Virus record (IMG/VR): IMGVR_UViG_2648501787_000012
Source: a virus
Lineage: Duplodnaviria > Heunggongvirae > Uroviricota > Caudoviricetes
Length of the DNA: 14,572 bases
Reading direction: 5' to 3' (one strand)
This document shows positions 10,330 through 14,572 of this stretch, in pieces; position 1 is the first letter of the stretch, and each line of letters opens with the position of its first letter. Below the pieces are notes generated by a model, which worked only from the letters and a program-made list of their open reading frames with translations, had not been told where the DNA came from and searched no databases. Position numbers and translations under genes: made by a program.

Positions 10330-10360
10330 GCCACCAGCTACTGAGCGGTGGCATTTTTTT
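10330..10360 (+). terminator. Rho-independent terminator at the module boundary
   Basis: Stem GCCACC (10330-10335) / GGTGGC (10347-10352) with an 11-nt loop, followed by ATTTTTTTG. Confidence 0.7.
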
Positions 10361-10392
10361 GTGCTATTTGTTTCATATTTTGCAATTACGAT

Positions 10393-10422
10393 GATGAATA
10401 TTGCGATTTGCGAAACTATAAT
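10393..10422 (+). promoter_or_regulatory. Candidate sigma70 promoter for the downstream operon
   Basis: Perfect -10 TATAAT at 10417-10422 about 35 bp upstream of a strong RBS and ATG (10456); the -35 (around 10393-10399) is poor. AT-rich intergenic context. Confidence 0.3.
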
Positions 10423-10455
10423 AACTGTTGTTTTATACAGTTCTAAGGGGGCGTT

Positions 10456-10617
10456 ATGGCTATTTCAGTAAAGCCGGTATTGATAAGTGAGAAGCAAATG
10501 GAAGCGATAAAGAAAATTCAGGAAGAGCAGCGTAAAAAATCAGGAATTGGAGTAGCGCCAACTCTGCATGAAATTGCACGAGGGTTAATAGATAAGGCGC
10601 TGGCAGGCTGTATGTGA
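10456..10617 (+). CDS. Small hypothetical protein (53 aa), possibly ribbon-helix-helix-like
   Basis: Not in the ORF track (under 60 aa). ATG at 10456 preceded by an excellent SD (TAAGGGGGCG); stop TGA at 10615-10617. The translation (MAISVKPVLISEKQMEAIKKIQEEQRKKSGIGVAPTLHEIARGLIDKALAGCM) loosely fits a strand-helix-helix pattern; weak inference. Confidence 0.45.
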   Translation: MAISVKPVLISEKQMEAIKKIQEEQRKKSGIGVAPTLHEIARGLIDKALAGCM

Positions 10618-10633
10618 AAACGGATGGCACCGC

Positions 10634-11095
10634 ATGGAACTAAAATTTATTGATAACCCGGTGCGATTACAGGCCTTTCTTAACGAGCCTGGCAATACCG
10701 AAAATATTGTTGAGCCGGGGCACACGTACTACATCAAGCCTGATGCGGTATATCTCGGCATCTACGAAGGATTAGTGCTGACAGGCGTTCATGAAGTGCG
10801 TAACTTCTGGCATAGCATTGTTGAATGCCATGCGGTGTACGACCCCGGATTCCGTGGTGAATATGCACTGCAAGGGCATCGATTGTTCTGCAAATGGCTT
10901 CTCGAAAACTCACCATTCCTTAACAGCATCACCATGGTTCCTGACACCACGAAATACGGACGGGCAATTATCCGTTTGCTTGGCGCTACCCGTGTTGGTC
11001 ACCTGGCCGATGCATATATCAGATGTGGTAAACCCGTCGGCGTAACGCTTTATCAGTTAACACGGCAACAATATAAGGAACTCAGCGAATGTTAA
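10634..11095 (+). CDS. Hypothetical phage protein (153 aa), first gene of the ejection-protein-like operon
   Basis: Globular-looking protein with several His/Cys. Its stop overlaps the next start (ATGTTAA). Positionally analogous to P22 gp14, but homology is not established. Confidence 0.75.
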   Translation: MELKFIDNPVRLQAFLNEPGNTENIVEPGHTYYIKPDAVYLGIYEGLVLTGVHEVRNFWHSIVECHAVYDPGFRGEYALQGHRLFCKWLLENSPFLNSITMVPDTTKYGRAIIRLLGATRVGHLADAYIRCGKPVGVTLYQLTRQQYKELSEC

Positions 11096-11766
11096 TTACC
11101 CATATAGCTCATAAACATCTCAATCGTGCCGTATACGAAAAAGGCGGTGATGGTGGTGCCTCTAAAGCCCAGGCGAAGGCCCAGCAGCAGGCAATTGATT
11201 TGCAGCGCGAGCAGTGGAATACGGTGATGAATAATCTCAAGCCGTATGCAGAAGTCGGATTGCCTGCTTTACAACAACTGCAAGGACTGATGACTCTGGA
11301 AGGGCAGAATAAAGCCGCGAATGATTTCTTTGGTTCTGGTTTATATAAAACACAGGCAGATCAGGCCCGTTATCAGAACCTTGTCTCAGCAGAAGCTACC
11401 GGGGGGCTTGGCTCAACAGCTACCAGTAACCAGTTATCTTCCATTGCGCCCATGCTTTATAACAATTGGCTTAGTGGGCAAATGCAAAATTATGGAAACC
11501 TGCTAAATGTCGGGATGAATGCGGCATCAGGGCAGGCAACAGCAGGGCAAAACTACGCCAATAATACCGGACAACTCTTGCAGGGGCTTGGCGCTATTCG
11601 TGCAGGTCAGGCGCAGCAGCCATCCAGTCTTGCGCGTGGTATTGGTGGGGCGGCATCAGGCGCTTTAGCGGGTGCGCAACTTGGTTCCGTTGTTCCGGGT
11701 ATAGGTAATGTCGCCGGGGCTATTGGTGGTGGGCTTATTGGTCTTGTTGGGGGGCTTGGATTCTAA
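11089..11766 (+). CDS. Putative phage DNA ejection/transfer protein (P22 gp7-like by size and composition)
   Basis: 225-aa protein, Q/A/N/G-rich and low complexity, with a glycine-zipper-like hydrophobic C-terminus (GIGGAASGALAGAQLGSVVPGIGNVAGAIGGGLIGLVGGLGF). Coupled to neighbours by overlapping stop/start. Confidence 0.8.
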   Translation: MLITHIAHKHLNRAVYEKGGDGGASKAQAKAQQQAIDLQREQWNTVMNNLKPYAEVGLPALQQLQGLMTLEGQNKAANDFFGSGLYKTQADQARYQNLVSAEATGGLGSTATSNQLSSIAPMLYNNWLSGQMQNYGNLLNVGMNAASGQATAGQNYANNTGQLLQGLGAIRAGQAQQPSSLARGIGGAASGALAGAQLGSVVPGIGNVAGAIGGGLIGLVGGLGF

Positions 11767-13187
11767 TGACGACATGGCAACTTGGCGGGCTGCCTAGCAT
11801 GGCACCGCAAAATGATAATGCTCCTCGTTCTTCCGTTCCTCAGCCTGTGCAGTATCAGCAGCAGCCAAACGTAGGTTTAATGGCGCTACAGGGGCTAAGA
11901 GGCGTTGCTGAGATTAATCAGCAGGCACGTCAACAACAGCGTAAATCAGAGTTTCAGAAAGCATATGCCGGGGCTTTTGAGTCTGGAGACAGAAACAAAA
12001 TGCGCAGTCTTATTTCTGAGTATCCAGAAGAATTTGAAAGCGTTCAGAAAGGGATGGGCTTTATTGATGACGACCAGAGAAATTCTATTGGTCATCTTGC
12101 GACTAGTGCTCAAATCGCATCTTCGCTCGGAACTGGGGCATTTGGAAAATTCATAGCAGATAACGAAGATGAAATGCGTCGCTTGGGAATTTCTCCTGAG
12201 TCTGTTGCCGAAATGCATGTTAATGATCCACAGGGATTCCAGCGGCTTGCTGGTAGTATGGCACTGTTTTCTCTCGGTCATGAGAAGTATTTCAATATCA
12301 AAGATCAAATGGAAGGTCGGGATATTGAGCGAGGCAGGCTGGCAGAGACAATCCGCAGCAATCAGGCTGGCGAAGCACTTCAGGCGAGAGGGCAGGATAT
12401 TAGCCGAGCAAATGCGTTAACGTCAGCATATGCACCAACAGCAGCAATGCAGAATTACAATCAGTACGCTCAAATGTTAAAGGCGGATCCAGAGGGGGCG
12501 GCGGCATTTGCGGCAGCGGCTGGAATTAATACAAACGCCAAAAAATTAATGAGTGTTAGAGAAAACGATGATGGCACTGTCACAAAATACTACACAGACG
12601 GAAGTGAAGAGCAGGGAAAACTAAACCAGCCAATATCTGGAGATGGGTTTCGTCCAATAGCTTTGCCAACAGCCCAAAAGATCATGGAAAAGTCGCCAGA
12701 AGGGGCTAAAAAAGCTGCTGGATTTGCATACAGGGTTAGGGATGCTCTTGATTCAATAGATACACTGAAAGACCAGCTTAGCCCACAGCGAGTGGCGATC
12801 ATTAATAATGCTTTGGGTAATGGGACGCTGGCTAACTTAACGCTCAGCCCAACAGAGCAGCAATACGTTGTTAATGCTAATGACGCAATAATGGCAATAC
12901 TCCGTCAGGAAACAGGGGCAGCTATCGTACCTGCTGAAATGTCAAAATATTATCAAATGTATTTCCCTCAGCCTGGCGACTCCACAAAAACCATTGATAC
13001 CAAGCGCCGGAAGATGGAAAACCAGTTCAATTCGCTGAAAGCTGCTTCTGGTCGAGCTTATGATGCTTTGCGGGTTATTTCAGCAGTTGACAGAGGAACG
13101 TCTTCTTCGTCGCAGACATTGCCGCAATCTGAGCAGGTATCACAGCCAGCAGCCAGCAGTAACTTTTCTTCACTATGGGGTGATTAA
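11766..13187 (+). CDS. Putative phage DNA ejection/transfer protein (P22 gp20-like by size and order)
   Basis: 473-aa protein, Q/A/S-rich, start overlaps upstream stop (TAATG). Sizes of the coupled genes here (225, 473, 461 aa) parallel the P22 gp7-gp20-gp16 ejection-protein trio as I recall it (about 229, 471, 609 aa). Recollection, not an alignment. Confidence 0.85.
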   Translation: MTTWQLGGLPSMAPQNDNAPRSSVPQPVQYQQQPNVGLMALQGLRGVAEINQQARQQQRKSEFQKAYAGAFESGDRNKMRSLISEYPEEFESVQKGMGFIDDDQRNSIGHLATSAQIASSLGTGAFGKFIADNEDEMRRLGISPESVAEMHVNDPQGFQRLAGSMALFSLGHEKYFNIKDQMEGRDIERGRLAETIRSNQAGEALQARGQDISRANALTSAYAPTAAMQNYNQYAQMLKADPEGAAAFAAAAGINTNAKKLMSVRENDDGTVTKYYTDGSEEQGKLNQPISGDGFRPIALPTAQKIMEKSPEGAKKAAGFAYRVRDALDSIDTLKDQLSPQRVAIINNALGNGTLANLTLSPTEQQYVVNANDAIMAILRQETGAAIVPAEMSKYYQMYFPQPGDSTKTIDTKRRKMENQFNSLKAASGRAYDALRVISAVDRGTSSSSQTLPQSEQVSQPAASSNFSSLWGD

Positions 13188-14572
13188 TGGCTAAAGCATG
13201 GAAAGATGTTATCGCCTCTCCACAGTATCAGGCGTTAGCACCAGAACAAAAAGCGCAGGCTCAGGAGCAATACTTCAATGAAGTCGTTGCCCCGCAAGCC
13301 GGAGAAAGTGTAGAGCAGGCTAAGCAGGCTTTTTATGCTGCCTATCCACTACCATCAACGAATGAAATAGACCGATCCCAATCAGCAACTCAAAATATTC
13401 AACATACATCATCTGATAATTCTCTTGCGTCAGGGTATGCAAAGTTAGCTACTCAGCAAAGAGAGGGGCTTGAGCGTTCAGCAGAACAGGGAGCCAGTCT
13501 TGGGGCTGCGATGCGCGATGCTATAACAGGCGAAAGCCGAATGACTTCAGAGATGGAGAGACTGCAAAATGTCGCCTCTGCCCCAGAATTGAACTCACTA
13601 AGCATGGATGCCCTAAAGGCTGGATGGTCCCAACTTTTCGGCTCTGACGCGTCTCAGGAAAAGATTCTTCAGGGAATGGGGGCGACATTAAGGCAGGATG
13701 AGAAGGGGAATACTATCGTTTCTCTGCCATCAGGTGATTATGCCCTGAACAAGCCGGGTTTATCACCGCAAGACCTGACTTCGTTTCTTGCTAATGCGTT
13801 GGCGTTTACACCAGCGGGCAGGGCTGGAACGGTGCTTGGTGCCATAGGAAAATCAGCAGCTACAGATTTAGCACTACAGGGAGCCACCAGCCTTGCTGGT
13901 GGAGAAGATATTGATCCGTTACAAACGGTAATTTCTGCTGGCATTGGTGGTATTGGTAAGGGGCTGGAAAATACAGCGAGTGCGGTTTCGAGGGCTGTTC
14001 GTGGTGATATGTCGCCTGAAGCAAAGGCTGCTGTCGACTTTGCATCGGAAAGAAATCTGCCGTTAATGACCAGTGACATGCTGAAAGATAAAACCTTTAT
14101 GCAGAGTCAGGCTCAGACATTAGGCGAAAGAGTTCCTTTTTTTGGAACCGGTAAGAATCGGCTGAATCAACAACAAGCACGAGAAAATTTAGTCAGAACA
14201 TTTAGCGATGGTCTGGGTGGCATTTCTGATAAACAGCTTTATGAATCTGCGACTAAAGGGCAACAAAAATTCATTGAGGCAGCAGGAAAGCGATATAACC
14301 GCATAATTGACGCTATGGGGGATACCCCTGTCGATCTCTCAAACACGGTAAAAGCTATCGACAATCAGATTGCCGTGTTAAGCCGCCCGGGCAAATCTCA
14401 GGATAGAGCCGCGGTAAAAGTCTTGCAGCAATTTAAAGACGATATCACCAGCGGACCAAATGACCTGCGCCTGGCGAGGGAAAACAGAACCGATCTTCGT
14501 GTCACGAACGGTGCAATAGTGATCCACACCCAACGCCTGAAATCAGATCCAGGGGGTAATCTGCTCTCCTGA
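13187..14572 (+). CDS. Putative phage DNA ejection/transfer protein (P22 gp16-like by position)
   Basis: 461-aa ORF, start overlaps upstream stop (TAATG), stop codon TGA is the last three bases of the window. A/Q/S/G-rich with an internal glycine-rich hydrophobic segment ([26 protein letters not shown]...[11 protein letters not shown]). Confidence 0.85.

Follow-up and report, generated by a model that had tools for sequence, protein, structure and literature searches.

A 14,572-nucleotide stretch of DNA from the IMG/VR virus record IMGVR_UViG_2648501787_000012 (hereafter the window) carries, at positions 10330-14572, an operon that resembles the ejection-protein cluster of the podophage P22 and lies behind the primase of a phage satellite. 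The locus raises the question of whether the satellite sits against a decayed P22-like prophage or itself carries homologues of the ejection (E) proteins, the two possibilities named when the operon was first noticed, and, if the latter, what the satellite gains from them. We find that the operon belongs to the island, which by sequence comparison is a relative of EcCIMP1, a phage-inducible chromosomal island (PICI) of Escherichia coli. With a probability of roughly 0.6, we read 10330-14572 as a module for virion proteins in an EcCIMP1-like PICI, a parasite of P22-like podophages, whose SOS-induced E proteins would be loaded into hijacked capsids.

An ejection-protein operon inside the island

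The original prediction described a coupled operon encoding proteins of 53, 153, 225, 473 and 461 amino acids (aa), and all five open reading frames (ORFs) were recovered at window 10456-14572 with the positions and sizes given. The frames are translationally coupled, first by a 7-nt overlap and then by two TAATG stop/start overlaps of the type that also couples P22 genes 20 and 16. The proposed likeness to the P22 gp14-gp7-gp20-gp16 cluster was borne out in the same gene order by Pfam, PHROGs and blastp searches. The 153-aa protein matches PF11039 (DUF2824, E = 1.7e-60) and phrog_651 (E = 2.2e-65), and is 83% identical to gp14 of the P22-like phage Kapi1 and 22-24% identical to P22 gp14. The 225-aa protein scores 244 bits against PF25688 (P22_gp7; cut-off 28, E = 1.9e-72), also matches phrog_598, keeps the N-terminal leader and shares 57% identity with Kapi1 gp7 and 53-56% with P22 gp7. 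The 473-aa protein matches PF16928 (Inj_translocase; 196 bits, cut-off 29.7, E = 1.1e-57) and, over its full length, phrog_917 (E = 1.6e-111), and the 461-aa ORF matches phrog_770, annotated as DNA transfer protein (E = 2.2e-80). None of the four E proteins matched an NCBIfam model, and the gp16 homologue had no match among the Pfam or NCBIfam models searched. The intact 701-aa gp16 of a relative is 30% identical to P22 gp16 over 482 aligned aa (E = 1e-52), and the glycine associated with escape from the exclusion protein SieA (P22 G532) is retained in the alignment. At the level of sequence the proteins are thus clearly homologues of P22 gp14, gp7, gp20 and gp16, and the strong similarity to each, beyond a mere likeness in size and composition, removes the possibility that the resemblance would vanish in protein searches.

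The fifth frame is present as described, but 461 aa is not the length of a natural protein, as its 3' end is supplied by the insertion sequence IS100. The gp16 gene is cut at 14499/14500, after codon 437, and intact relatives encode 701 aa. In the E. coli collection, the match of each of the 184 near-full-length records ends at 14499, and the 73 bases from 14500 to 14572 are multicopy on plasmids of Escherichia, Yersinia and Shigella; in plasmid p1658/97 this 73-bp segment sits 14 bp upstream of IS100 istA. Since the insertion was found in 0 of the 5426 complete E. coli genomes that underlie all E. coli counts given here, it is specific to the source strain. With gp16 knocked out by IS100, the copy of the operon in the window is probably no longer functional.

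The region beyond IS100 was read from the locus of E. coli 755 (L001), which is 100% identical to window 1-14499. Compared with K-12, where yicC is joined directly to the region upstream of dinD, the island is an 18,129-bp insertion (L001 14813-32941) between these two genes, with yicC on one flank and dinD, yicG and ligB on the other, and the operon (L001 25456-30292) lies inside it. Downstream of it, intact relatives have three small convergent ORFs, a PerC-family gene and then host dinD, with no prophage. The observation that terminase, portal, coat and needle genes are not upstream proved correct, and a DUF927 primase stands there instead. Within 15 kb of the operon in L001 there are no P22-like terminase, portal, coat, needle, tailspike, lysis or immunity genes. 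The RefSeq annotation of four whole islands (L001, L003, L037 and L038), in which the small ORFs were partly scanned with hidden Markov models (HMMs), lists no capsid, terminase, tail or lysis genes, and the ejection set provides its only virion-related genes. No copy of an att repeat was found in window 10010-10450, where the right end of a satellite abutting a prophage could have been expected. Because a single insertion spans int to the PerC-family gene without other P22 genes, the operon is part of the satellite and not a prophage remnant; of the two possibilities raised at the outset, the element itself carrying the ejection-protein homologues is the one that held.

The island has an integrase at one end, an AlpA-type regulator and a primase module with an origin, all co-oriented, which is the organisation of a PICI. 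The P4 hallmarks psu, delta, sid and alpha primase are absent from the RefSeq island annotation, for which no dedicated HMM search was run. Its closest described relative, EcCIMP1 (L003), is a 19,963-bp PICI of E. coli MP1 with the P22-like helper phage vB_EcoP_Kapi1; it excises and circularises only when Kapi1 is present and is transduced by this phage at very low frequency (Pick, Stadel & Raivio 2025, ISME J, PMC11773190). Window 2629-11926 is 97.4% identical to EcCIMP1 DNA over 9.3 kb, and the two elements have in the same order orf143, AntA, DUF4222, the ash/C4 region, small ORFs, the DUF927 primase, iterons, orf53, gp14, gp7, gp20, gp16 and the PerC-family gene. Identity is 100% for orf53, 96.7% for gp14 and 99.6% for gp7. 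The alpA genes differ, the EcCIMP1 integrase is only 28% identical, and the integration site is tRNA-Thr there and yicC/dinD here. The gp20 genes are mosaic, with the first 160 nt in common (identity up to window 11926) and divergence into different alleles past the first 53 codons, and the EcCIMP1 gp16 has 906 aa with an SLT lytic transglycosylase domain against 701 aa here, the two being unrelated by blastp. By these comparisons, the window element is an EcCIMP1-like PICI with another integrase, integration site and gp20/gp16 pair.

The authors of the EcCIMP1 study reported no recognisable structural genes, and described coding sequences 017-019 as 'DNA transfer protein' or DUF2824-like, similar to Kapi1 proteins, with a proposed role in packaging (PMC11773190). 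The initial impression that ejection homologues are undescribed in such satellites therefore holds only in part: such coding sequences had been noted, but they were not recognised as the gp14/7/20/16 set, and neither a LexA box nor pac mimics were reported. While the element type has been known since 2025, the complete, selected and probably SOS-controlled ejection module, its gp20/gp16 core, its spread across genera and its association with pac mimics appear to be new.

The same module stands at the same position in related satellites of E. coli, Citrobacter and Serratia, as a check of such relatives had been meant to establish. In E. coli, the primase/orf53/gp14/gp7 junction is intact in 236 genomes and the promoter/orf53 leader is present in 499 (9.2%), compared with approximately 16-17% for the P22-like gp10 gene. 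Five E. coli islands with a more divergent leader encode orf57, gp20 (447-488 aa) and gp16 (701-705 aa), without gp14 and gp7. By way of orf53 homologues, int/AlpA/AntA/Ash/DUF927/PerC-type islands were also located in Citrobacter, Serratia and Klebsiella; those of Citrobacter have the full four-gene set and those of Serratia gp20 and gp16 only. In the satellites examined gp20 and gp16 are always paired, and gp14 and gp7 are optional. Among 31 gp7 loci in the GTDB species-representative genomes, 28 have P22-like head or tail genes (gp4, gp10 and/or gp26) upstream, in keeping with prophages; two of the others are distant matches without a match to any query protein, and one (Escherichia sp.) is in a satellite context.

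Except for the IS100-disrupted gene of the window, the operons are intact in all copies examined. The ratio of nonsynonymous to synonymous substitution rates (dN/dS) between EcCIMP1 and Citrobacter is 0.06 for gp14, 0.07 for gp7, 0.09 for gp20 and 0.08 for gp16 at dS > 1; it is 0.15 for gp16 between strains 755 and ECONIH5 and 0.05-0.21 for orf53. Such values show that the ejection genes have evolved under purifying selection, as expected of functional genes. The satellites harbour at least four types of gp20/gp16 alleles. The alleles of the window were found in no sequenced phage, the nearest being 67% identical for gp16 (E. coli phages N7 and HZ41) and 52% for gp20 (APSE phages), and EcCIMP1 shares only 27% (gp20) and 24% (gp16) identity with its helper Kapi1.

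The P22-like phages P22, Sf6, HK620, CUS-3 and Kapi1 have the same four families in the same order with the same stop/start coupling, and there too gp7 is the most conserved and gp20 and gp16 are the most mosaic. In contrast to these phage clusters, the satellite operon does not lie in a late operon behind gp4, gp10 and gp26 but behind a primase, with its own terminator, promoter, predicted LexA box and leader ORF, and many satellites hold gp20 and gp16 only.

Islands of Klebsiella michiganensis (L045-L047, 10001-12649) encode, after the orf53 homologue, a 605-aa phrog_7694 protein instead of the E set. Towards its C-terminus it is similar to tail-injection transglycosylases and tape-measure proteins, and a small-terminase-like helix-turn-helix protein adjoins it, which suggests that this slot holds injected virion proteins matched to another type of helper.

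A separate transcription unit with predicted SOS control

The operon is a stand-alone transcription unit that consists of a terminator, a promoter with a predicted LexA box, orf53, gp14, gp7, gp20 and gp16. The strong terminator described in front of the operon was found as a hairpin (stem 10337-10352) with a T-run and a fold z-score of -3.7, and is kept in E. coli satellites. The candidate promoter was likewise recovered. In an alignment of the orf53 upstream regions (320 bp) of four genera, its TATAAT (10417-10422) is conserved across genera and lies 37-40 nt upstream of the orf53 ATG in 12 loci. No good -35 hexamer was found, and a consensus promoter scan gave no full sigma-70 match. The inverted repeat over the -35 region, TGCAAT-N13-ATTGCR in the alignment, is kept in satellites of Escherichia, Citrobacter, Serratia and Klebsiella.

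The predicted LexA box scores 22.9 bits with a position weight matrix (PWM) made from 20 known SOS boxes of E. coli, compared with a median of 22.5 for these boxes and 18.7 for the best of 200 shuffles. Its CTGT-N8-ACAG core occurs once in the window. Escherichia, Citrobacter and Serratia retain the half-sites around a variable spacer, and the box is degenerate in the satellites of Klebsiella michiganensis. We therefore predict that LexA represses the operon and that the E genes are apparently inducible by DNA damage. A weaker LexA-like motif, TGCTGGATTTGCATACAGGG, is present on the minus strand at 12716-12735 inside the gp20 gene; its 17.8 bits exceed the 95th percentile of the best scores of shuffled windows but not their maximum, and it is probably due to chance.

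A precedent for such control is the LexA-regulated packaging operon I of the Staphylococcus aureus pathogenicity islands (SaPIs), likewise a virion-related satellite operon downstream of the replication module. As summarised in PMC3152322 with reference to Ubeda et al. 2007, operon I is repressed by LexA and is switched on by the SOS response independently of the late regulators of the helper. It differs in content, with terS, cpmA/B and ptiA in place of ejection proteins, and the LexA control is a prediction in our case. A late promoter of the lambda/P22 type (PR'-qut-tR', with antitermination by a helper Q protein) was considered and rejected, as the PR'/6S region of Kapi1 has no similarity to window 10200-10360 and the conserved -10 hexamer lies downstream, not upstream, of the terminator at 10337-10359. 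A search of 9800-10700 for Rfam RNA families found none.

The first gene of the operon encodes the leader protein orf53, which is identical in EcCIMP1 and has homologues in the satellites of Citrobacter, Serratia and Klebsiella. Searches of Pfam, PHROGs and NCBIfam, a PDB profile search and Foldseek all failed to place it in a family or fold, and no relatives of known function were detected. An AlphaFold2 (AF2) model (pLDDT 77) has an extended N-terminus and helices at 12-29 and 37-52, a predicted topology that is ribbon-helix-helix-like, and orf53 is possibly a regulator.

pac-like sites and the proposed role

The satellites also carry sites that resemble the packaging site pac of P22. Window 4233-4339 (minus strand) is 86.9% identical over 107 bp to P22 nt 4-110, which contains the annotated pac site, and its core at 4311-4339 matches P22 pac at 16/22 positions, the published pseudo-pac pattern at 16/17 and the family consensus at 25/29. 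The 107-bp terS-derived segment is present in all E. coli family members, and those with sequence beyond gp16 have a second pac-like site ~500 bp downstream (L001 30810). Serratia satellites have three pac-like sites after the operon (L042 14961-15197), and Citrobacter satellites have 5-9 copies of the ~30-bp core in a tandem-like array (L039 16346-16880; L041 16360-16800), two of which match the pseudo-pac pattern exactly (pattern from Maier et al. 2024, PMC10996546). By chance, 0.05 such sites would be expected per 20 kb. None were found in the Klebsiella variant, which has other cargo, or in Kapi1.

The pseudo-pac sites of P22 generalized transduction are similarly short, resemble the 22-bp pac of gene 3 and lie outside the phage genome, and headful packaging can begin from them (Maier et al. 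2024, PMC10996546). The satellite sites differ in that they are on a mobile element, are conserved across genera, reach 5-9 copies in Citrobacter and, in E. coli, are embedded in 107 bp of terS-derived sequence; their function is a candidate one. We consider the segment at 4233-4339 a probable packaging signal of the satellite that is functionally tied to the ejection module. The mimics make satellites with the E operon look adapted to phages with a P22-type terminase. Kapi1 lacks the P22-type terS/pac that the satellite mimics, and the sites point away from Kapi1 to a helper whose small terminase is of the P22 type; a mismatched helper may thus explain why EcCIMP1 transfer was reported to be very low. 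Between the pac-like units 3' of the operon lie copies of a second repeat family, TTTCGTGACCAGTACGCGCGCG, which is found again close to the island's right end.

In the mechanism that we propose, DNA damage would induce the resident P22-like helper and remove LexA from the operon promoter. The satellite would then make its own cognate gp20/gp16 pair in the cytoplasm, together with gp14 and gp7 in the variant studied here. No signal peptides were seen when the gp20 and gp16 sequences were read directly, so the proteins should reach the cell envelope only by incorporation into helper procapsids followed by ejection. Particles that package satellite DNA through the pac mimics would deliver it through a conduit specified by the satellite. 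The benefit would likely be independence from the E-protein allele of the current helper, and possibly escape from SieA-type exclusion acting on gp20 and gp16. Foreign E proteins do assemble into P22 virions, where gp7 can be exchanged, gp20 and gp16 have to match as a cognate pair and SieA-escape mutations map to gp20 and gp16 (PMC10883804). The content of the satellites, with gp20 and gp16 always present and gp14 and gp7 optional, fits these genetics.

The idea put forward with the original prediction, that the satellite customises its own DNA-delivery proteins, would follow from this mechanism. A more far-reaching version, which we regard as tentative and rather doubtful in its entirety, is that a widespread PICI family captures the helper terminase by pac mimics, multiplied into arrays in some lineages, and, on SOS induction, loads its own cognate gp20/gp16, alone or together with gp14 and gp7, a specialisation on P22-like podophages so far undescribed for any satellite. 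The satellite would then set how the envelope is crossed, could enter cells that exclude the helper, as by the SieA-type exclusion of resident P22-like prophages, and would be freed from the helper's allele.

Several points weigh against the loading of satellite E proteins into helper capsids. We infer their entry into virions from sequence, and swaps of gp20 or gp16 alone give non-infectious P22 (PMC10883804), so a capsid that mixes two gp20/gp16 pairs could suffer from it instead of gaining. Phages whose E proteins differ widely are excluded by both SieA types tested (PMC10883804), and escape from exclusion is consequently not guaranteed. EcCIMP1 leaves Kapi1 titres after induction unaffected and is transduced very rarely (PMC11773190), so that particles of this helper have shown no effect. 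The LexA box is a prediction whose case is one of position and conservation, with a PWM from 20 sites, and one CTGT-N8-ACAG per 14.5 kb arises by chance in ~20% of shuffles. Finally, IS100 interrupts the copy in the window.

PICIs as a rule interfere with their helpers, and non-cognate satellite gp20/gp16 might instead poison the conduit of helper capsids to the benefit of the host population. This is unlikely, even though P22 with only a foreign gp20 or gp16 is non-infectious despite incorporating the foreign protein (PMC10883804) and the satellite alleles are far from those of Kapi1. E proteins enter procapsids before the DNA, so particles carrying the satellite would be equally disabled, and EcCIMP1 does not lower the titres of Kapi1 after induction (PMC11773190). 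Neither a complete, cognate and well-conserved gp20/gp16 pair nor a four-gene set would be needed for poisoning.

We give slightly less credence still to protection of the resident cell, in which the E homologues, or the membrane protein or lipoprotein gene after gp16, would block DNA entry by superinfecting P22-like phages. The slot that P22 uses for sieA, after gp16, holds small membrane proteins in the yicC/dinD islands and a lipoprotein with a faint TraT match (E = 0.09) in EcCIMP1 and Citrobacter. As gp20 and gp16 have no signal peptides, they are not expected to arrive in the periplasm, the site at which the incoming conduit forms, and a LexA-repressed promoter would be off in an unstressed cell at the time of superinfection. 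The 129-145-aa convergent ORFs after gp16 encode membrane proteins but were rejected as SieA homologues, having neither a phrog_7745 match nor the FxRYPxEAxxFNK motif. Exclusion, if real, may also stem from the downstream genes and not from the E proteins.

A role in satellite DNA packaging or capsid morphogenesis, as Pick et al. 2025 suggested from the position downstream of the primase, is improbable. The genes do lie where packaging genes are found in other Gram-negative PICIs (PMC11773190), and gp14 is annotated 'head morphogenesis', but P22 gp7, gp20 and gp16 are ejected and take no part in DNA packaging (PMC10883804; bioRxiv 10.64898/2026.09.03.749273), and pac mimics can explain packaging without satellite proteins. 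A decayed P22-like prophage remnant beside an unrelated satellite is the only alternative that we consider excluded, the other three being weaker than the loading of E proteins into helper capsids: the operon matches the P22 late operon exactly in gene order and coupling, so the module is ultimately phage-derived, and its last gene is broken in the window, but int, primase, operon and PerC-family gene form one 18.1-kb insertion between yicC and dinD with no other P22-like gene within 15 kb, the primase/operon junction that is intact in 236 E. coli genomes recurs with other integrases, att sites and genera, intact ORFs with dN/dS of 0.06-0.15 indicate selection and not decay, and EcCIMP1 including these genes excises as one 19,963-bp unit (PMC11773190).

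Satellites that supply some of their own virion components have a parallel in the capsid-forming PICIs (cf-PICIs). In its treatment of these elements, bioRxiv 10.1101/2025.02.11.637232 describes them as making their own capsids and packaging machinery and taking only tails from the helper. Unlike cf-PICIs, the window element has no capsid, portal or terminase and encodes only internal proteins that are ejected with the DNA. Known satellites alter capsid size, packaging specificity or late expression, or build capsids, and to our knowledge none replaces the DNA-delivery proteins. If the proposed role is true, the cargo element determines entry specificity and how sensitive the particle is to superinfection exclusion, and predictions of transfer range change for these islands, which carry PerC-type virulence regulators and defence genes. 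The satellites would also be a natural experiment on a long-standing puzzle, the strong mosaicism of P22 gp20 and gp16 and their recognition by SieA. With EcCIMP1, one member of the family is already open to genetics, so a direct experiment is feasible.

Further features of the islands

The positions of the features are collected in Table 1. L037 and L038 are further yicC/dinD islands.

Table 1. Features of the window and of related islands (window coordinates unless a locus is named).
Feature	Position	Strand	Remarks
Integrase	1-1260		one island end
int-alpA RNA	1269-1335		Rfam
AlpA-type regulator alpA	2436-2639		
Segment homologous to P22 gene 3 (small terminase) pac region	4233..4339	-	pac-like core 4311-4339
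isrK RNA	4466-4543		Rfam
C4 antisense RNA	4606-4693		Rfam
Primase	7112-9871		919 aa, Zn-ribbon/Toprim/DUF927
Iteron cluster, probable replication origin	9895..10009		three direct GTTGGTTCA, AT-rich spacer, three inverted TGAACCAAC; directly after primase
Intrinsic terminator	10319..10363	+	GATGCCACC...GGTGGCAT then T7; between primase/origin region and ejection operon
Inverted repeat TGCAAT-N13-ATTGCG	10381..10405	+	over -35 region; candidate regulator-binding site
-10 hexamer TATAAT	10417..10422	+	invariant in 12/12 Escherichia, Citrobacter and Serratia loci
Predicted LexA (SOS) box AACTGTTGTTTTATACAGTT	10423..10442	.	CTGT-N8-ACAG core 10425-10440, 2 nt after -10
orf53, small leader protein	10456..10617	+	53 aa
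gp14-type protein (DUF2824)	10634..11095	+	153 aa; P22 counterpart annotated 'head morphogenesis'
gp7-type ejection protein	11089..11766	+	225 aa; glycine-rich C-terminus; outer-membrane-proximal conduit part
gp20-type ejection protein (periplasmic tube)	11766..13187	+	473 aa
gp16-type ejection protein (inner-membrane part)	13187..14499	+	N-terminal 437 codons only, disrupted
IS100 left end (IS21 family)	14500..14572	+	last 23 codons and stop of the '461-aa' ORF
Post-gp16 membrane proteins	L001 30311-30700; L038 16047-16442; L037 17268-17705	-	
Post-gp16 lipoprotein	L003 12632-13330; L039 15353-16171		232-272 aa, lipobox LLAGC, faint TraT match (E = 0.09)
TTTCGTGACCAGTACGCGCGCG repeats	L001 30842-30870, 31128-31156, 32738-32766; L039 16321-16697		

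Small envelope proteins of variable type fill the slot directly after gp16, which in P22 belongs to sieA: multi-pass membrane proteins with the common N-terminus MIAILNKAKGRVGV in the yicC/dinD islands, and the lipoprotein in EcCIMP1 and the Citrobacter satellites. They are candidates for the unexplained superinfection immunity of EcCIMP1, and none of them is homologous to SieA.

A 24-bp direct repeat occurs at L001 14920, upstream of int, and at 32851, and has no copy in window 10010-10450. It was rejected as attL/attR because the copies lie 107 and 68 bp inside the insertion ends defined by K-12, the segment was unoccupied in 0 of the 5426 genomes and neither predicted attP junction was present in IMG/VR; the repeats may be arm sites of the integrase. 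The 8-bp CAGATCCA is found at both island junctions as CAGAT(C/T)CA, in the last yicC codons (L001 14792-14812) and at the right junction (32930-32941), which compared with K-12 reads like the yicC end minus 12 bp. The motif is at the same positions in L037 and L038, and the C/T variant is alike at both ends in two of the three islands. It may be a trace of the true att core.

A second iteron cluster similar to that behind the primase (GTTGGTTCA/TGAACCAAC with an AT-rich spacer) lies upstream of the PerC-family gene at L001 32010-32140 and is also present in EcCIMP1. The two clusters bracket the ejection operon and the accessory genes, and could point to a second origin, a recombination hot spot or a module boundary.

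An AntA-type antirepressor, an ash/Icd region and then small ORFs precede the primase in the window. The isrK and C4 RNAs lie inside a long ORF (4085-5152) that is annotated in RefSeq as an 'ash family' pseudogene followed by an Icd-like gene. C4/isrK RNAs and Icd-like and ash-family genes are common to the immunity regions of P1, P7 and P4-type elements, and the isrK/C4/ash/Icd cassette is an antisense-RNA immunity cassette of the P1/P7/P4 style that adjoins the AntA antirepressor.

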